From: Xylanibacter ruminicola 23
Lineage (GTDB): Bacteria; Bacteroidota; Bacteroidia; Bacteroidales; Bacteroidaceae
Direction: 5' to 3'
Length of the DNA: 32,000 bases
Assembly: GCF_000025925.1 (NCBI RefSeq)
Contig: NC_014033.1
Location: 2,310,001 to 2,342,000, forward strand
Shown here: in pieces, positions 2,899 through 26,427 of the stretch
Layout: the number at the start of each line of letters is the position of its first letter
Numbering within the stretch: position 1 is the stretch's first letter
Translations under genes and position numbers: made by a program
The notes under the pieces: model-generated
Databases searched by the model: none
What the model was told of the DNA's origin: nothing
Seen by the model: the letters and a program-made list of their open reading frames with translations, nothing else

Positions 2899-3606
2899 AT
2901 GAGACTTAGAATTCTATCCATCATAGCAGCACTCTGCATCGCCACAAGCTGTGTAGCCCAACGACGATACGTGATACAGCACAAGCCATATATCGACTTG
3001 CGCCCTATGCACTTTGGTATTGCAGTAGGCATGAACCTGCAAGATATTGAGTTTGAAACCGAAGCTCCAATCGTGTGCGATGCCGACCGCTGGAATACCG
3101 GATTCTCGGTAGGTGTACTGGCCGACATGCGCCTATCCAACAATCTGAACCTGCGCATCGTACCCACCATGCACTTTGGTGCCAAGCACCTAACCTTGCA
3201 CAAGTTGGACGAGACAGACACGCATGGCAACCCAAGAACTGAGACACAGGACCTGAAGAATACCTATCTTTCGGTACCCGTCGACCTGAAGTTCTCGGCC
3301 CAGCGATGGAACAATATCCGCCCTTACATGCTGGCAGGTGTTAACGGCATGGTGAATCTTACCAACAAGAGTCAGGAGATAGTGCAACTGCAGCGTACCG
3401 ACCTGATGCTGGAAGTTGGCTTGGGATGCGATCTGTATCTACCCTTCTTCAAACTGGCACCCGAATTGAAGTTCTGCTATGGATTAGGCAACAGGATCGA
3501 CAAAAGTCACGTAGCCGATATCAAGGACGACTATAAAAAAACGTATGCCAACTCGATTAAGAGCGGGCATACGAAGATGATTGTATTAACGTTCTACTTT
3601 GAATAA
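2899..3606 (+). CDS. Outer-membrane beta-barrel protein, PorT/SprT-like (type IX secretion associated)
   Basis: The ORF track starts at TTG 2881. ATG 2899 gives MRLRILSIIAALCIATSCVAQ, a signal peptide. The length is about 235 aa, with alternating beta-strand pattern, a C-terminal aromatic residue (TFYFE) and a PorT-like N-terminal motif KPYIDLRPMHFGIAVGMNLQDIEF. Confidence 0.55.
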   Translation: MRLRILSIIAALCIATSCVAQRRYVIQHKPYIDLRPMHFGIAVGMNLQDIEFETEAPIVCDADRWNTGFSVGVLADMRLSNNLNLRIVPTMHFGAKHLTLHKLDETDTHGNPRTETQDLKNTYLSVPVDLKFSAQRWNNIRPYMLAGVNGMVNLTNKSQEIVQLQRTDLMLEVGLGCDLYLPFFKLAPELKFCYGLGNRIDKSHVADIKDDYKKTYANSIKSGHTKMIVLTFYFE

Positions 3607-3608
3607 AC

Positions 3609-4451
3609 TTACTTCTCGAACGTAAGCACCATTTTGCCGATAAACACGCCGTGCTTACCGTTCTGGTCGTCAGGAATCTGCTTGCCAGTCTTATCAGGTG
3701 CGTACTCCAGTGTGGGCATGTAAGTGTGGGTATGTCCACCCAGCACCAAGTCGAGTCCCTGCACCTCGCTCATAAACTTATGATCGGGATACTCAGAAAT
3801 CGCCCAACCTAAGTGTGAGAGACAGATAACCACATCGCACTTCTCGCGACGGCGCAGGATATCGATATACTTCTTCGATGTCTCAATAGGATCGAGGAAC
3901 TTGACGCCTTCGCAGTTCTTATTAGCCACAAGTCCCTTCATAGGAGCACCCAGAGCATAAACACCAATCTTCAAGCCATTACGCTTCAGGATGACATAAT
4001 CCTTTACCAGACCTTCGCAAGGTGTACCTGTAAAGTCATAGTTCGAACAAACTACAGGGAAATTAGCCATACGGAACAGCTTGGCCATATTCTCCAATCC
4101 AAAATCAAACTCATGATTACCGATGGTAACAGCATCGTAGCCCATCTGATTCATCAAGCCAATCTCAACCTCACCCTTGAAGAGGGTATAGAAACCAGAG
4201 CCCTGCGAGAAATCGCCTGAGTCGAAGAACAACAGATCAGGATTCTGACGGCGCTCTTCCTTAATCATATTAATACGGCGTATAAAGCCACCGCGACCTG
4301 CCAGATCCTTATTATCAAGATTCTCGTTAAGCGGCATAATGCACGAGTGGGTATCGTTGGTGTGCAGCACTACAAGCTGCTTCTTGGTTTTAGCGCTGGC
4401 AGAAACAAAAGCCAGGAGCGCAACCATTATAATAAGATGAAATTTACGCAT
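3609..4451 (-). CDS. Metallophosphoesterase corresponding to the N-terminal catalytic half of UshA-type 5'-nucleotidases
   Basis: It carries the calcineurin-like motifs HTNDTHS, GDFSQGS and GNHEFDFG. ATG 4451 (MRKFHLIIMVALLAFVSASA) gives a signal peptide; the track start 4481 would overlap the upstream gene. Confidence 0.8.
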   Translation of the reverse strand: MRKFHLIIMVALLAFVSASAKTKKQLVVLHTNDTHSCIMPLNENLDNKDLAGRGGFIRRINMIKEERRQNPDLLFFDSGDFSQGSGFYTLFKGEVEIGLMNQMGYDAVTIGNHEFDFGLENMAKLFRMANFPVVCSNYDFTGTPCEGLVKDYVILKRNGLKIGVYALGAPMKGLVANKNCEGVKFLDPIETSKKYIDILRRREKCDVVICLSHLGWAISEYPDHKFMSEVQGLDLVLGGHTHTYMPTLEYAPDKTGKQIPDDQNGKHGVFIGKMVLTFEK

Positions 4452-16610: not shown

Positions 16611-17426
16611 CTAAATTTTACCCTCGTTTACAGCATTAAACAGCAACTCCAAATTAACCTGAGTTTCAGCACTATCCTCCTTGCGTGGTGCAATCACAGC
16701 ATTACCCTGAAGCGAAGGCTCGGCATAAAGCACATCGTCCATCTCGGCAGGTGTGCGATACTCAAAAGTAAACTTCTCCTGGATATCAGCCACACTGGCA
16801 TTCAGCAACAGCTTCTGTGGACTCAAGATAAGGATATGATCCAACAGCGATTCCACATCGTGCACCTGATGGGTTGAGATTATCAGCGTGCGATCGCCAG
16901 TCATATACTGGGTAACCACCTTACGGAACTGACTCTTCGAAGGGATATCCAGTCCGTTGGTAGGCTCGTCCATCAGTAGCACACGGGTGTTGGTAGCCAA
17001 GGCAAAGGCCATAAACACCTTTTTCTTCTGTCCCATCGAGAGGGCATTCAGTTTCAGGTCGGTGGTCAGTTCAAAATCCTTCAGACAGCCCTCCAGAACG
17101 GTTGTGCTGAACAAGGGATAGAAGGGGCGGTTGATCTTTACATACTCATCGAGCGACATAGCGGGCAGGTCGAACTCCTCAGGAACGATAAAGATATCCT
17201 GCAGTGTTTCAGGGCGGCGCAGTTTGGTCTCGATACCATCAAAGCTTACAGTACCCTTCTTGGGGCGCAGCAGTCCAGCAATCAGGTAAAGCAGTGTACT
17301 CTTACCTGTACCGTTCTTACCCAGCAGACCATAAATATTATCCTGCTTCAGTTCCAGACTGAAATCATCGAATACCAGGTTCTTACCACCTGCGTACTTA
17401 AAACTGATGTTGTTTACCTCGATCAT
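16611..17426 (-). CDS. ABC transporter ATP-binding protein (YtrB-like) with a C-terminal extension of about 60 aa
   Basis: It has Walker A GKNGTGKST, a degenerate signature LSMGQKKK, Walker B LLMDEPTNGLD and an H-loop STHQ. Confidence 0.9.
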   Translation of the reverse strand: MIEVNNISFKYAGGKNLVFDDFSLELKQDNIYGLLGKNGTGKSTLLYLIAGLLRPKKGTVSFDGIETKLRRPETLQDIFIVPEEFDLPAMSLDEYVKINRPFYPLFSTTVLEGCLKDFELTTDLKLNALSMGQKKKVFMAFALATNTRVLLMDEPTNGLDIPSKSQFRKVVTQYMTGDRTLIISTHQVHDVESLLDHILILSPQKLLLNASVADIQEKFTFEYRTPAEMDDVLYAEPSLQGNAVIAPRKEDSAETQVNLELLFNAVNEGKI

Positions 17427-17464
17427 AATTCTATTTAATTTTAATGTTCAATGTTACGTGTTAT

Positions 17465-17488
17465 AGTGTACCACTTTAATAGTACACT
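17465..17488. promoter_or_regulatory. Candidate GntR/YtrA operator: inverted repeat AGTGTAC-N10-GTACACT
   Basis: The 7-bp perfect arms are 17465-17471 and 17482-17488. The site lies immediately downstream of the minus-strand -7 box and 39 nt upstream of the ATG of the ABC operon that encodes the GntR regulator. The GT..AC half-sites fit the GntR family. Confidence 0.5.
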
Positions 17489-17489
17489 G

Positions 17490-17497
17490 CAAAAGTA
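17490..17497 (-). promoter_or_regulatory. -7 promoter box (TActTTTG) for the ABC/GntR operon
   Basis: The plus strand reads caaaagta, which is tacttttg on the minus strand, 64 nt upstream of ATG 17426. Confidence 0.5.
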
Positions 17498-17598
17498 GAA
17501 TAAAAACAAATACGCTCCAAGCTTTTATGCAAAAATCTGCAATCTATTAACACTATTTAGCACTTCAACCCTCACGCGTACATAACTAATAAACAGGG

Positions 17599-17661
17599 AG
17601 ATAGTACGGCACTATCTATGAGATACTCGTAACTTATCTGGTAGATATCCGGCACTTATCT
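17599..17661. repeat. Three tandem 19-bp palindromic sites AGATA-N9-TATCT at an exact 22-bp period
   Basis: The sites are 17599-17617, 17621-17639 and 17643-17661. All six half-sites are perfect and every spacer is exactly 9 nt. Confidence 0.9.
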
Positions 17662-17678
17662 GCCCACGAAGTTACGGT

Positions 17679-17737
17679 TACTATTAATGGTAGCGATTGC
17701 TACATTTAATGGTAGCAAAAATTCCCATTAATGGGAA
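17679..17737. repeat. Three ATTAAT-centred palindromic sites at an exact 22-bp period
   Basis: The sites are tactattaatggta (17679-17692), ctacatttaatggtag (17700-17715) and the perfect 16-bp palindrome ttcccattaatgggaa (17722-17737). Their centres are at 17685.5, 17707.5 and 17729.5. Confidence 0.85.
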
Positions 17738-17750
17738 CAATGGCAGCACA

Positions 17751-17936
17751 GTGTAACACTGTAACATACGACAGGAGAGAGAAAAAATATGGTCAAGATA
17801 GAACAAGTAATAGCTTATAAGATTATTTATATATTATAATATATAAATAATTAATATATAATATTATTATAATAATAGATATTATACAACCATGACCAAA
17901 CTTTTTTTCGTTCCTGTCGTAAAATTAACGTTACAC
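17751..17936. repeat. 186-bp imperfect inverted repeat enclosing an extremely AT-rich palindromic core
   Basis: Arm pairs are gtgtaac (17751-17757)/gttacac (17930-17936), a perfect 10-mer tacgacagga (17767-17776)/tcctgtcgta (17912-17921), and tggtca (17790-17795)/tgacca (17893-17898). The core 17815-17886 has 70 of 72 positions A/T, with a perfect 30-bp palindrome (17822-17851) and a 16-bp palindrome (17862-17877). Confidence 0.9.
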
Positions 17937-17961
17937 TCTTGGTAGATTGAAATATTTTTTG

Positions 17962-17969
17962 TACCTTTG
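17962..17969 (+). promoter_or_regulatory. -7 promoter box (TAccTTTG) for the 470-aa P-loop gene
   Basis: The context is ttgtacctttgcag, 26 nt upstream of ATG 17995. Confidence 0.6.
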
Positions 17970-17994
17970 CAGTGTAATCTTAAAAGACTGAATA

Positions 17995-19407
17995 ATGACA
18001 AAAGAGACTAACTTAAATGACCGTTCAATCATCGAACGACAGATGCTATTCGCAGGTAAAGAAATCGAGAAGCTGATGGATGTATATCCCTGCTTACGCG
18101 AGGTGTGCAAGGGCCTTAAAACCGAGGCCTACCCTGCTGCTATGTTTGCATCGTCGGCCTTCCTGGGTACGCTGATGACACGTTGTACCTATCGTTTTTA
18201 CCATCGCCCTCAGGAGTTGCGTCGCCTCAACTATAGCGTGTTCATCATTGGCGACCCTGGTTCAGGAAAATCGTTTGTAACCAATCTCTACGAACTTTTA
18301 GCCGGTCCTATCCGCAAAGTATCTAAGGAGGGGCAGAATGCCGAGAATCGCTATCGTCGCAAATACAAGGAGTGGCTGGACAACGGACAGAAAGGCGATG
18401 GCCCCAAGAAGCCCCAGGTAATTATCCGTACCCACCCTGCCCGTACATCCAACAAGGTGTTTATCGAAGACATGAAGCATGCCGTTGAGATGGTGGATGG
18501 CCAGGAGATGCACCTGCACATGCTCTCGTTCGACACAGAGCTCGACAATGCCATCAATCAGCAGGGCGAGGCATGGAGCAACAAGACCTATCTGGAATTG
18601 AAGGCTTTCCACAACGAGGAGGATGGACAGTTCTTCTCGAACTACGACTCAGAGCTTTGCGACTTCAATGTGTTTTGGAACTTTGTTTATACAGGCACAC
18701 CCCGCGCTCTGAAAAACAAGGTGAATGCCAACAACGTAGGCAATGGATTCTCAACCCGACTGGCAGCTATTCCCATGCCCTCAACCCACTTCGAGATGCT
18801 GAAACGTGAGGAGTTGGAAGATGCGAACGTAGAGCCTGAGGAGCACAAAACCCTGCGCATGTGGGCCGAGCGATTAGACTCTACCCATGGCGAACTGCCC
18901 ATTGGCAAACTGGTAGAAAGCACCTACGAATGGGCCAAGGAGCACATGGAAGAAGCCGAGGAGGACCAGTCGAAAACCGACGAACTGTTGCTTAAGCGTG
19001 TACCCTACTATGGCATCGCCGTAAGCGTACCTTTCATTATGATGCGCCATTGGGATGAGTGGCAGCAGCACCACACCCTCACTCTCGACGACACCGACCT
19101 GTACTTGTGCCGTTTGGCCATGAACATCCAGTTCGCATGCCAGCGCCATTTCTTTGGCAAATACTGGGATTACTACTTTATGCAGCAGGCTAACTGCATT
19201 AGCTATCCCACCCGCAAGCGCCACACCAAACTGATGCGTTCGCGTTACAGTGTTCTACCTGATGAATTCAGCGTGCCTTCCATGCAGATATTCCTAGGCG
19301 TGTCCCAGCGTACCGCCGAAAAGATGATAGAGCGCTGGCTCAACGATGGCTACATCAAGCGCATAGAACCCGGCAGGTACCAGAAATTATATCTCGAGCT
19401 AACATAA
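17995..19407 (+). CDS. Orphan P-loop NTPase with a C-terminal winged-helix-like domain (family uncertain; possibly DUF3987/SF3-helicase-like)
   Basis: This 470-aa ORF has its own promoter. It has Walker A GDPGSGKS (aa 86-93), a candidate Walker B LHMLSFDTE (aa 174-182), and a C-terminal HTH-like segment FLGVSQRTAEKMIERWLNDGYIKRIEPGRYQK. The ORF call is solid; the functional assignment is tentative. Confidence 0.75.
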   Translation: MTKETNLNDRSIIERQMLFAGKEIEKLMDVYPCLREVCKGLKTEAYPAAMFASSAFLGTLMTRCTYRFYHRPQELRRLNYSVFIIGDPGSGKSFVTNLYELLAGPIRKVSKEGQNAENRYRRKYKEWLDNGQKGDGPKKPQVIIRTHPARTSNKVFIEDMKHAVEMVDGQEMHLHMLSFDTELDNAINQQGEAWSNKTYLELKAFHNEEDGQFFSNYDSELCDFNVFWNFVYTGTPRALKNKVNANNVGNGFSTRLAAIPMPSTHFEMLKREELEDANVEPEEHKTLRMWAERLDSTHGELPIGKLVESTYEWAKEHMEEAEEDQSKTDELLLKRVPYYGIAVSVPFIMMRHWDEWQQHHTLTLDDTDLYLCRLAMNIQFACQRHFFGKYWDYYFMQQANCISYPTRKRHTKLMRSRYSVLPDEFSVPSMQIFLGVSQRTAEKMIERWLNDGYIKRIEPGRYQKLYLELT

Positions 19408-19498
19408 TTGCTTATTGCAATTAAACTTTCTACCACTTACAACATCTAAGATTTACAGCATTATCTAACAATTACAACTATATCAAACAAACAGTGAA

Positions 19499-23672: not shown

Positions 23673-24334
23673 TGGATTATATTATCATAGTAGCAGGCGG
23701 TAAGGGCTTGCGCATGGGGTCGGACATCCCCAAGCAGTTTCTGCCCATTGGTGGCAAGCCCGTACTGATGCGCACACTGGAGCGATTCCGCGAGTACTCT
23801 AAGGACATCCAGATTATTCTGGTATTACCCGAAGCCCAGCAGGCCTATTGGCATCAGCTGTGCCAGGAGTACCATTTTGATGTGGAGTACACCTTAGCCA
23901 ATGGCGGACAAACACGCTTCCACTCAGTACAGAACGGACTGGCCAAGGTACCCGATGATGCTATCGGCGTGGTAGGTGTACACGATGGTGTGCGCCCCTT
24001 CCCCAGTATCGAGGTAATTCGTAACTGCTATACGACAGCAAGAGAAAAAAAGGCCGTCATTCCAGTCATCCCCGTTGTTGAGACCGTACGCCATCTGGAA
24101 GGCGACCAATCCAAAACAGTGCCTCGCGATGCCTATCGACTGGTGCAGACACCCCAGACCTTCGACATCCAACTGCTGAAGGCAGCCAATCGTCAGCCCT
24201 ACAACGACGGTTTTACTGATGACGCCTCGGTAGTTGAAGCATTCGGCTACAACATTACCTTGGTAGAAGGCAACCGCGAAAACATCAAGATTACCACTCC
24301 CTACGATTTAAAAATCGCAGAGGTTCTTATATAA
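23672..24334 (+). CDS. ispD: 2-C-methyl-D-erythritol 4-phosphate cytidylyltransferase
   Basis: It has the N-terminal motif [28 protein letters not shown] and also VHDGVRPF and TPQTF. Its start overlaps the upstream stop by 1 nt. Confidence 0.9.
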
Positions 24335-26427
24335 TGGACATACTCAATCAGGATATCAAATACTTACCCGGCGTGGGACCTAACCGTAAGAAGATGCTGA
24401 GCAACGAGCTTGGCATTGAGAGTTACGGCGACCTGCTGGAGTACTACCCCTACAAATACGTCGACCGCTCGAAGGTGTACACCATCCACGAGCTTACGGG
24501 CGACATGCCGTTTGTACAGGTGGTAGGACATATCCTGAGTTTCGAGACCTTTCCGATGGGCCCGCGTAAGGAGCGCGTAGTGGCACACTTTACAGATGGC
24601 ACCGGCATCTGTGACCTTACCTGGTTTAATGGTGGCAAATACGCCAAACAGAATTATAAGATAGGTACCGAGTATCTGGTGTTTGGCAAACCCACTGTGT
24701 TTAACAACCGCATCAACTTCACCCATCCCGACCTGGATGATGCTTCTAAGGTTGATCTCACAGCGATGGGACTTCAGCCCTATTACAACACCACCGAGAA
24801 GATGAAGAAGAGCGGATTGAACTCGCGTGCCATCGAACGACTCACCAAGACGCTCATCGAGAAACTTCCGCCACAACCCGAAACCATCCCCGATTTTATC
24901 TACCAGCCCTTGCATCTGGTAGGTCGTGACTTCGCCCTGCGCACGGTACACTATCCACAGAACGCCAAGGACCTGGAGCGTGCCCGATTGCGTTTGAAGT
25001 TCGAGGAACTGTTTTTTATACAACTTAATATATTAAGGTACGCGAGCGATCAGCGTCGCAAGTTCCGTGGGTATGTATTCTCTACGGTAGGCGATGTATT
25101 CAACACTTTCTATAGTCAGTATCTGCCCTTCCCACTCACAGGTGCCCAGAAGCGTGTGATTAAGGAGATTCGCAAGGATATGGGTTCTGGCCGCCAGATG
25201 AACCGATTGTTGCAAGGTGATGTGGGTAGCGGTAAAACACTTGTGGCACTGATGTCAATGCTGATTGCCATCGATAACGGCTATCAGGCCTGTATCATGG
25301 CCCCAACCGAAATCCTGGCCGAACAGCATCTGCAAACCATCATGGGATTCCTCAAGGATATGAACCTGCGCGTAGCCCTGCTTACCGGTATGGTAAAGGG
25401 GAAACGTCGCGAAGAGGTGCTCGAAGGTCTGTTGGATGGTACCATCAACATTCTGGTGGGCACCCACGCTGTCATCGAGGATACTGTGCAGTTTGCCCGA
25501 TTAGGCTTTGTGGTGGTCGATGAGCAGCACCGCTTTGGTGTGGCCCAGCGCGCCAAGCTTTGGAGTAAGAGCACTAACCCACCCCACGTATTAGTGATGA
25601 CTGCCACGCCTATCCCACGCACCTTAGCCATGACTCTGTATGGCGATCTCGACGTGAGCATTATCGACGAGTTGCCTCCAGGCCGTAAGCCCGTACAAAC
25701 CACACATGTGTTTGATTCGCGTATGACGTCGCTCTACGATGGCATCCGTCGGCAGATTAACGAGGGCCGACAGGTTTACATCGTGTTCCCCCTGATCGAA
25801 GAGAGTGCCAAGAGCGACCTAAAGAACCTTGAAGATGGCTTTGAGGTACTGCGCGAAGCCTTCCCCGAGTTCCGGTTGAGTAAGGTACACGGACGTATGA
25901 AACCTAAGGACAAAGAGGAGGAGATGCAACGCTTTGTACGTGGTGAGACACAGATACTTGTGGCAACAACGGTGATCGAGGTAGGTGTGAATGTTCCTAA
26001 CGCCTCAGTCATGGTTATTCTCGAGGCCCAACGCTTCGGACTGGCCCAGTTGCACCAGCTCCGAGGTCGTGTAGGTCGAGGTGCCGACCAGTCGTATTGC
26101 ATTCTCGTCACTCCCTTCAAACTGAGCGAGGACACCCGCAAGCGTATCGACATTATGTGCGATACCAACGACGGTTTCCGTATAGCCGAGGCCGACCTGA
26201 AACTCCGTGGTCCTGGCGACCTGGAAGGCACCCAGCAGAGTGGTATGGCTTTCGATTTAAAGATTGCTGACATAGCCCGCGATGGACAGATTGTGCAGAT
26301 GGCCCGCGACGAGGCACAAAAGATTATTGACGAGGACCCAGAATGTAACTCTGAGAAATTCAGCATGTTATGGAACCGACTGCGCCAATTACGTAAAACA
26401 AATATTAATTGGGCGGCTATATCCTAA
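24334..26427 (+). CDS. recG: ATP-dependent DNA helicase RecG
   Basis: The 697-aa ORF has a wedge/OB N-terminal region and SF2 motifs: GDVGSGKT, DEQHRFGV, TATPIPRT and QLHQLRGRVGRG. Its start overlaps the ispD stop by 1 nt. Confidence 0.95.
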   Translation: MDILNQDIKYLPGVGPNRKKMLSNELGIESYGDLLEYYPYKYVDRSKVYTIHELTGDMPFVQVVGHILSFETFPMGPRKERVVAHFTDGTGICDLTWFNGGKYAKQNYKIGTEYLVFGKPTVFNNRINFTHPDLDDASKVDLTAMGLQPYYNTTEKMKKSGLNSRAIERLTKTLIEKLPPQPETIPDFIYQPLHLVGRDFALRTVHYPQNAKDLERARLRLKFEELFFIQLNILRYASDQRRKFRGYVFSTVGDVFNTFYSQYLPFPLTGAQKRVIKEIRKDMGSGRQMNRLLQGDVGSGKTLVALMSMLIAIDNGYQACIMAPTEILAEQHLQTIMGFLKDMNLRVALLTGMVKGKRREEVLEGLLDGTINILVGTHAVIEDTVQFARLGFVVVDEQHRFGVAQRAKLWSKSTNPPHVLVMTATPIPRTLAMTLYGDLDVSIIDELPPGRKPVQTTHVFDSRMTSLYDGIRRQINEGRQVYIVFPLIEESAKSDLKNLEDGFEVLREAFPEFRLSKVHGRMKPKDKEEEMQRFVRGETQILVATTVIEVGVNVPNASVMVILEAQRFGLAQLHQLRGRVGRGADQSYCILVTPFKLSEDTRKRIDIMCDTNDGFRIAEADLKLRGPGDLEGTQQSGMAFDLKIADIARDGQIVQMARDEAQKIIDEDPECNSEKFSMLWNRLRQLRKTNINWAAIS

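Follow-up and report, generated by a model that had tools for sequence, protein, structure and literature searches.

The window analysed here is a 32-kb stretch (32,000 nucleotides) of the Xylanibacter ruminicola 23 chromosome. Within it, a 568-bp intergenic region (17427-17994) separates two divergent transcription units and contains an array of three AGATA-N9-TATCT palindromes, referred to below as the type-A array. The minus strand carries an ATP-binding-cassette (ABC) transporter operon with a short GntR (YtrA-like) regulator, and its nearest gene ends at 17426. On the plus strand, a gene for a 470-aa helicase-like protein is followed by a GH3 xylosidase gene. The intergenic region is the most AT-rich stretch of the window. 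A cassette of about 400 bp that accompanies the helicase gene was recognized here; phased palindrome arrays, a core, a promoter and the gene follow in that order (Table 1). The small open reading frames (ORFs) in the intergenic region were unconvincing, and Rfam and tRNA scans of the window gave no RNA genes.

Table 1. Positions, within the window, of the features discussed in the text
Feature	Position	Strand	Remarks
Type-A array, three 19-bp dyad-symmetric AGATA-N9-TATCT units	17599-17617, 17621-17639, 17643-17661	.	22-bp period
Single type-C unit (CCACGAAGTTACGG)	17665-17677	.	identified by direct reading of the sequences
Type-B array, three ATTAAT-centred palindromes	17678-17744	.	TTAATGG at 17684, 17706 and 17728; exact 22-bp period
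Box0 words, TGTAAC x2	17752-17765	+	just outside the left arm
Left arm	17766-17795	+	Box1 ATACGACAGG (CGACA 17769-17773); Box2 TGGTCA (GGTCA 17791-17795); 22 bp apart
Pure-AT core, 56 nt	17822-17877	.	perfect 30-bp palindrome 17822-17851; candidate DNA-unwinding or cruciform element
Right arm, mirror of the left	17893-17922	-	Box2' TGACC 17893-17897; Box1' TGTCG 17915-17919
Bacteroidetes-type helicase promoter	17939-17969	+	-33-like TTGG 17939-17942; -7 box TACCTTTG 17962-17969; conserved in all orthologues
Solitary 470-aa DUF3987-type P-loop helicase-like protein	17995-19407	+	Walker A GDPGSGKS, residues 86-93; predicted C-terminal winged helix, 412-464; without primase domain
ABC/GntR -7 box (17490-17497) and palindrome AGTGTAC-N10-GTACACT (17465-17488)	17465-17497	-	outside the cassette

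The three type-A units read, in order, gAGATAgtacggcacTATCTat, gAGATActcgtaactTATCTgg and tAGATAtccggcactTATCTgc. All six pentamers are perfect, every spacer is 9 nt, every gap is 3 nt and the period is exactly 22 bp, which, together with a pattern search, confirmed what a first-pass annotation of this DNA had described. The search of the window found four matches to AGATA-N9-TATCT against 0.04 expected, with four or more matches in none of 100 shuffles, and Tandem Repeats Finder (TRF) also called the 22-bp period at the array. The fourth exact match (AGATAGGTACCGAGTATCT, 24659-24677) was located inside the ORF at 24334-26427 and is probably due to chance, because it has no neighbouring copy. 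In unit 1, the dyad held at eight of nine positions across the full 19 bp, and one unit of the relative L015 was a perfect 19-bp palindrome (AGATTGAACGGTTCAATCT). Thus, the sequences indicate that the true unit is a 9+1+9 palindrome, more than a pair of 5-bp half-sites. Folding of the array as a single-stranded hairpin was weak (z = -1.9).

The first-pass annotation had left the abundance of the motif and its conservation among orthologues to be checked. In 615 kb of related Prevotellaceae loci, the relaxed pattern AGATW-N9-WATCT occurred 17 times, and 13 of the occurrences fell in orthologous arrays. Outside cassettes, arrays were absent from these 615 kb, from some 450 kb of paralogue loci and from the remainder of the window. 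In the alignment of orthologues, the half-sites and the phasing were conserved while the spacers varied, as the annotation had envisaged. The intergenic region of close relatives aligned well, and the number of type-A units ranged from two to four. Three units were present in the window, in strain Ga6B6 and in one metagenomic contig; two in D31d and SIG140, which carry a clean 22-bp deletion relative to the window; and four in RUG765 and L090. KHT3 and L015 had AGATT...AATCT, with both half-sites altered. Over 26 units from nine lineages, the information per position was about 0.9-1.4 bits in the outer pentamers and about 0.3-0.6 bits in the inner nine, which came in two versions, GTACGGCAC and nCCGTAACn. 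The first units of L090 were the exact reverse complement of window unit 1, so the orientation of a unit is free, as expected of a symmetric dimer site. Three lineages with helicases only 60-61% identical to that of the window kept the array at an unchanged position in the cassette, and the order and orientation of the arrays relative to the helicase gene varied freely. Because the half-sites are the most conserved part, the spacers vary, the copies number two to four and the units can be flipped, the comparison supports the prediction that the type-A array behaves as phased, dyad-symmetric protein-binding sites. Bound dimers would all lie on one face of the DNA, since the sites are two helical turns apart.

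Other palindromes accompany the type-A array. Besides the type-A and type-B arrays, a lone CGAAGTTACG unit is present in the window. Type-C units occurred in two or three copies at 22-bp spacing in L015, L090 and L093. The third type-B unit (TTCCCATTAATGGGAA) is a perfect palindrome, and type-B arrays were also found in L007-L010, L013, L090, L137 and L158.

Palindromes spaced by two turns are typical of cooperative operators, and a repressor or activator on the three palindromes might control the helicase gene, the ABC/GntR operon or both, with no role in replication. The array does lie between two divergent promoters, and the GntR regulator is encoded in the neighbouring operon. However, its sites neither overlap nor abut a promoter. 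The intergenic region has only two TAnnTTTG -7 boxes, one per transcription unit; about 100 bp separate the array from the ABC box, and about 300 bp, including the whole AT core, separate it from the helicase box. In other lineages the array occurs without an adjacent ABC/GntR operon, which excludes GntR, named in the first-pass annotation as a control for binding assays, as an obligatory reader. The array was also seen between convergent genes or at 3' ends (L115, L111), and its order and orientation are unconstrained, as described above. A likelier GntR (YtrA-like) operator is the separate candidate palindrome AGTGTAC-N10-GTACACT, which overlaps the ABC promoter and abuts its -7 box. Taken together, an operator is an unlikely explanation of the array. 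The first-pass annotation had also noted an extra half-site, ggtagatt, near the -33 position of the helicase promoter as a hint of autoregulation. This word is present at 17941-17948, but it overlaps the conserved -33 TTGG, and its AGAT is not conserved. L004 has AGATT iterons yet GGTGGTTT at the -33 position, and L012 and L015 have nothing comparable there. Because the word fails to follow the iteron sequence in relatives, neither the half-site nor the autoregulation drawn from it was supported.

Mirror-symmetric AT core and the adjacent helicase-like protein

The core is arranged as a mirror: Box1, 22 bp and Box2 on the left, a 56-bp pure-AT palindrome in the centre, and Box2', 22 bp and Box1' on the right. 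The AT run lies 160 bp from the type-A array. Box1 reads TTACGACA or TTGGACA and Box2 reads ACGTCA, TGGTCA or TACCA, and both arms co-vary between lineages. Among the 30 arms of 15 lineages, the Box1-Box2 offset was exactly 22 bp in 25 and 23 bp in three more. Box2 was uncalled in two arms, one of which (L004 L) has a GGTCG variant at the 22-bp position. In most lineages the word (C/T)GTAAC is found 8-10 bp beyond Box1 on its outer side. The full arm motif was specific to the cassette, which accounted for 30 of its 31 matches in 694 kb.

A pure-AT, largely palindromic run of 50-60 nt occupied the core across lineages. Among the 21 loci L001-L021, the cassettes of 18 contained a run of at least 35 nt. 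Its distance upstream of the gene was about 120-180 bp at 17 of these loci; at L019, where a RhuM-family gene (3068-3862) is inserted between the core and the helicase promoter, it was about 1 kb. The core therefore need not adjoin the promoter. No run of this length was found upstream of the gene in L022-L080, the loci of paralogues of about 800 aa; at one of these, L048, an AT run lies about 2.7 kb from the match. The segment 17755-17930 folded strongly as single-stranded DNA (z = -6.0), implying hairpin or cruciform potential.

The 22-bp phasing was a general property of the cassette. Of 15 non-redundant cassette lineages, 13 had their strongest autocorrelation at a lag of 21-23 or 44 bp (z 3.8-8.5 in 12 of the 13), and the mean z peaked sharply at lag 22. 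Only two of 80 control windows upstream of primase-fused paralogues reached the same standard of periodicity. The phased repeats themselves are lineage-specific and stand at the distal end of the cassette, and many of their units are palindromic, for example AATAAGGAcTCCTTATT and GCGATAcTATCGC, with three copies each. The 470-aa orthologues of L005-L018 are found in unrelated chromosomal contexts, flanked by SecDF, outer membrane protein (OMP), RNase G, LptF/G, GpsA and glycosidase genes and free of integrase, primase and mobilisation genes; the upstream architecture is nevertheless constant. Cassettes elsewhere have toxin-antitoxin genes (HigB/HTH_3 and HepT/MNT in L090), Sel1-caspase genes (L004, L020) or Schlafen/AlbA_2 (L013) as neighbours, which hints at variable or defence-island surroundings.

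Additional Box1-Box2 arms immediately follow the stop codon of the helicase gene; some lineages also have them at a distance of 2-3.5 kb, where they bracket other genes (L011 5422 and 7402; L012 5399; L013 182 and 5480; L015 5414; L007 1792). The left arm and the post-gene arm form direct repeats around the AT core, right arm, promoter and gene. In L005, L008 and L009, 22-bp arrays are found downstream of the gene instead of post-gene arms. No att-like direct repeats of at least 10 nt flanked the module in 14 of 16 loci. We considered whether the arrays are transposon ends and found no mirrored arrays at the far end of the module. An invertible promoter of the Bacteroidales kind was also rejected, as there is no TAnnTTTG box on either strand between the arms; inverting the centre of the core would change nothing, because it is an AT-only palindrome.

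The 470-aa protein has its closest genomic match in strain D31d (99%). DUF3987 (PF13148) was the only Pfam family matched, and 20 of 23 orthologues matched it. In 23 aligned proteins, G86, P88, G91, K92 and S93 of the Walker A motif and L174-D180-E182 of the Walker B motif were invariant. Relatives at about 50% identity are about 800 aa long with an N-terminal BT4734-like primase domain; since these distant relatives are primase-fused, the 470-aa form represents a subfamily without this domain. The AlphaFold model had a mean predicted local distance difference test (pLDDT) score of 67. Residues 412-464 formed a helix-helix-helix-strand-strand unit with pLDDT 83-94, which matched the folds of MarR, CRP, TubR and IdeR locally and gave weak helix-turn-helix (HTH) matches in Pfam and PADLOC. 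We are therefore confident that the model places a winged-helix DNA-binding domain at the C-terminus. The top full-length fold matches among viral proteins (BFVD) were DUF3987 and primase-polymerase proteins (E = 3e-5). A search of PDB sequences with the family profile gave no match, a fold search of PDB gave weak local winged-helix matches only, and a library of defence systems returned only a local AbiEi-type HTH match. A DUF3987 protein of a Flavobacteriia mobile element has been shown experimentally to be a 5'-3' helicase (PMC11724360), and the family is predicted to supply replicative helicases for mobile elements (PMC5862659).

These features bear on two further possibilities, a plasmid-type centromere (parS/parC-like) and a chromosomal oriC. 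Phased repeat arrays are typical of centromeres, and divergent genes around the most AT-rich stretch of the window would suit either. However, no ParA, ParB, ParR or TubR-type gene is nearby, where the neighbours are the ABC/GntR operon and the GH3 xylosidase gene, and the P-loop has the classical Walker A sequence rather than the ParA-type variant. There is no cluster of DnaA boxes either: with up to one mismatch, TTATCCACA had no match in 17427-17994 and 11 in the window, not above chance. The GC-skew profile showed no clean switch. The cassette also occupies different chromosomal positions in different species. Both possibilities are largely refuted and retain hardly any probability.

Candidate readers of the sites and arrays beyond the cassette

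The predicted recognition helix of the protein, (Q/K)R(N/T)AEKM(I/V)ERW (RNAEKMIERW), was nearly invariant across lineages with unrelated arrays. At its second position, a change from Arg to Ser arose twice on the tree, each time with a change of Box1 in every arm copy. Box1 changed from TTACGACA to TTTGGACA in one Ser clade and to TTGCGACA in L013, at the same Box1 position in both. Because the Arg/Ser switch co-varies with it, Box1 is the likely target of the winged helix, and the sequence comparison suggests that the helicase reads Box1 rather than the AGATA sites.

The first-pass annotation had preferred classical iterons, with the adjacent 470-aa helicase-initiator binding the AGATA units, initiating replication and regulating itself. 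Several observations fit: the linkage of array and gene is tight across contexts, the array period and the distance from Box1 to Box2 are both 22 bp, the inner parts of the units (GTACGGCAC; reverse complement GTTACGAG) resemble Box0 and Box1 (TTACGACA, CCGTAACTT), and the protein has the predicted winged helix. However, the recognition helix hardly varies between lineages whose arrays are unrelated, and the type-A inner cores kept TACGG where Box1 had become TTGGACA. Twelve protein columns tracked the presence of type-A arrays, compared with 4-20 in control groupings, so none stood above the controls. Related arrays also lie on long contigs without such a gene within several kb, and relatives do not conserve the half-site at -33. 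The adjacent P-loop protein is thus probably not the reader of the array, and autoregulated classical iterons seem quite unlikely. The reader is probably a separate, postulated trans-acting dimeric factor; something other than the helicase of the window is indicated because type-A arrays flank several classes of core.

The evidence for these classes came from metagenomes. A scan for two adjacent units returned at least 120 stretches. Among the matches listed there were 37 clearly related arrays, mostly from rumen-type samples, and in five of these 37 the helicase was on the same stretch. Many related arrays stood near contig ends, consistent with assemblies breaking at the AT palindrome. At least 12 were located in mid-contig among unrelated genes, with neither a helicase gene nor cassette arms close by; alongside them, in varying order and orientation, stood other palindromes at 22-bp spacing, of the TTCCCTCGTGAGGGAA, CCACGTGTGG and ATTAAT types. 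At least four other classes of symmetric AT-rich core were distinguished, with arms of GTTGCAACG repeats, TGACAAATGACAnCGTCA, GGAAACnTGGAAAC or ACAGGTAC. In 177 kb, all 10 cores picked up by a strict detector, which misses imperfect cores such as that of the window itself, were within 700 bp of an array. One array-flanked core was upstream of an operon ending in a primase-DUF3987 paralogue. The type-A array is therefore a module shared by several classes of symmetric AT-rich core. No shared neighbouring gene was found at the non-cassette array loci, where most neighbours had no Pfam or PHROG match.

Individual loci added detail. Long inverted repeats of other classes, around AT-rich centres, stand beside type-A arrays at L137 3640-3860, L115 830-1010, L111 5681-5836 and L190 1691-1852, and the arms of this group are of the GTTGCAACG-repeat, TGACAAATGACA and GGAAACnTGGAAAC types. 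A family frequent in rumen metagenomes (L096, L112, L113, L123, L163, L168, L199 and about 15 others) has the near-perfect 19-bp palindrome AGATAAGTGCCACTTATCT three times with a period of 22 bp; the right half of this sequence matches window units 2 and 3 (CACTTATCT). On the viral contigs L085 (7423-7560) and L082 (1164-1257), seven near-identical 22-bp units (ACAGATACAACCCCTGTATCTC) are intergenic. These are unrelated, phage iteron-like arrays, which share the AGATAC...GTATCT ends by coincidence. Viral contigs with the double pattern carried unrelated near-perfect 22-bp or 11-bp direct repeats and were set aside as analogues only.

The dispersal of the arrays could also mean a mosaic repeat, a selfish or structural intergenic family resembling repetitive extragenic palindromic (REP) sequences or bacterial interspersed mosaic elements (BIME), for which the helicase cassette is incidental. 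Related arrays beside unrelated genes in many rumen metagenome contigs, and their mosaic combinations with other palindrome arrays in either orientation, are what such a family would give. Four observations speak against it. The copy number is low, with none outside the cassette in the paralogue loci or the rest of the window; the detectable symmetric cores are always beside an array; the array keeps its cassette position despite helicase identities of about 60%; and the units fold poorly as single strands. We consider a mosaic repeat highly unlikely.

A putative replication-origin-like region and its relation to known systems

Overall, we favour the reading that the AGATA array is a set of selected dimer-binding sites and forms the outer accessory module of a replication-origin-like composite region that travels with a solitary DUF3987-type helicase gene. 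We place its probability at about 0.45. Of the iterons, centromeres and cooperative operators among which the first-pass annotation had left the choice, an iteron-like arrangement fits best, because the array belongs to an origin-like region beside a gene of replicative-helicase type; the centromere fails for want of a partner gene, and the simple operator because the array is not promoter-proximal.

In the mechanism we propose, the helicase would recognize Box1 and Box2 via its winged helix and load itself on either side of the AT core, in the manner of the Rep proteins of Staphylococcus aureus pathogenicity islands (SaPIs). A separate trans-acting factor would occupy the type-A array. Once bound, this factor may organize, license or silence opening of the core, as do the iterons of the lambda O-some or the host-factor sites of plasmid origins.

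Several points weigh against this reading. The conservation, phasing and modularity of the array, the architecture of the cassette and the family and domains of the protein were observed, while all binding and all replication activity are inferred from them; the unwinding element is a candidate, and the reader of the array is a postulated factor only. The DUF3987 match of the protein scored 21.1 bits, under the Pfam gathering score of 27, and the ATPase core of the AlphaFold model is of low confidence. Homologues were absent among 72,556 plasmid (PLSDB) and 50,697 phage records, and neither the window nor 13 orthologue contexts contained integrase, primase or packaging genes. The module sits among housekeeping genes, where an active origin would be hazardous to the chromosome, and several loci with array and core have no recognizable replication gene nearby. 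Finally, no circular episome of about 2 kb was found, and three short metagenomic contigs bearing the helicase lacked terminal overlap; all three run on into chromosomal genes. Two of these contigs (L086 1-60, L088 1-60) begin inside the AT palindrome, where the assembly broke. Since the AT palindrome breaks assemblies, such modules are systematically fragmented in metagenome-assembled genomes.

The phage lambda origin offers a close parallel for the array. Lambda iterons are 19-bp imperfect inverted repeats, bound by dimers, beside an AT-rich tract, with four copies in lambda and six in Shiga toxin (Stx) phages (PMC7466680). The cassette likewise has tandem 19-bp dyads at a spacing of about two turns, in variable copy number (2-4), with an AT tract alongside. 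However, lambda has its iterons within the gene of the initiator that reads them, whereas in the cassette the array stands upstream of the gene, whose product is probably not its reader. Other arrays and an arm also stand between the array and the AT core, the candidate initiator is a helicase rather than an O-type protein, and there is no sequence similarity.

In its anatomy the core matches SaPI origins, which employ a self-loading helicase with a C-terminal winged helix and have an AT region flanked on both sides by two or more short iterons, oppositely oriented (PMC9371898). The cassette combines a helicase with a predicted C-terminal winged helix and penta- or hexanucleotide boxes, at least two per side, mirrored about an AT centre, and its origin-like site immediately adjoins the helicase gene. 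The two differ in the helicase, which is of the DUF3987 family in the cassette (the characterized member is 5'-3', PMC11724360) and of the 3'-5' Rep family in SaPIs. The cassette core is upstream of the gene, whereas the SaPI origin is downstream. The cassette also has no integrase, primase, regulator or packaging gene, and its phased palindrome arrays have no SaPI counterpart. The resemblance to SaPI and lambda origins is one of mechanism, not of family membership.

Origins of iteron plasmids have a modular build, in which initiator sites stand alongside those of shared factors, among them DnaA boxes and IHF sites (PMC4980987). Those of pPS10, RK2, F and R6K resemble the cassette in having repeats of about 22 bp close to a rep gene and an AT-rich unwinding element. 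Unlike the palindromic units of the cassette, plasmid iterons are direct repeats, and Rep monomers read them. In addition, no PLSDB plasmid encodes a relative of the protein, and the locus is chromosomal, with no circular form found. The AgaPP/AgaPH primase-helicase module of Flavobacteriia mobile elements has a helicase of the same DUF3987 family, in the same phylum, with conserved Walker A and B motifs and a small C-terminal domain (PMC11724360). AgaPH differs in its N-terminal PriCT domain, partner primase-polymerase, integrase and tRNA integration site, none of which accompanies the protein of the window, and no origin has been described for it.

We found no description of this cassette in the literature, and no origin has been described for any DUF3987 helicase; for such an origin, the cassette is a concrete candidate whose boxes are defined, and the Arg/Ser-Box1 co-variation gives a lead. 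The cassette also shows that a helicase of replication type, together with its cis-site, can survive in many Prevotella species as a 2-kb chromosomal module on its own, and the shared arrays beside different cores point to a common DNA-binding factor in an agriculturally important, poorly studied group. A broader scenario, speculative and very unlikely as a whole, is that rumen Prevotellaceae possess a family of chromosomally fixed, integrase-less origin-like modules, in which symmetric AT cores specific to each initiator or helicase are combined with shared 22-bp-phased arrays read by one licensing factor. Under stress or when phages attack, the helicase of the window would then fire its site in situ and, rather than replicating a mobile element, over-replicate the nearby genes for transport, defence or toxin-antitoxin systems.

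Other repeats of the window

The two divergent promoters (17465-17504 and 17955-17984) are alike in inverted orientation, with 83% complementarity over 30 nt. Both share TTTGCAGTGTA after the -7 box, a word that is absent in KHT3 and RUG765. A 13-bp palindrome at 17749-17761 (CAGTGTAACACTG) is similar to the AGTGTAC-N10-GTACACT palindrome.

Two tandem repeats were noted elsewhere. An intergenic 22-bp repeat at 2447-2517 (TTTCCAAGTTAGAAAA..., 3.2 copies, 73% match) adjoins the hairpin CAGGTGTTTCCttattGGAAACACCTG; its sequence bears no relation to the AGATA array. The other, a 19-bp repeat (19439-19490, 2.7 copies), lies between the stop codon of the helicase gene and the start of the GH3 gene and contains ATCTAAGAT, TTATCTAAC and a degenerate Box1-like word, CTTACAACA.

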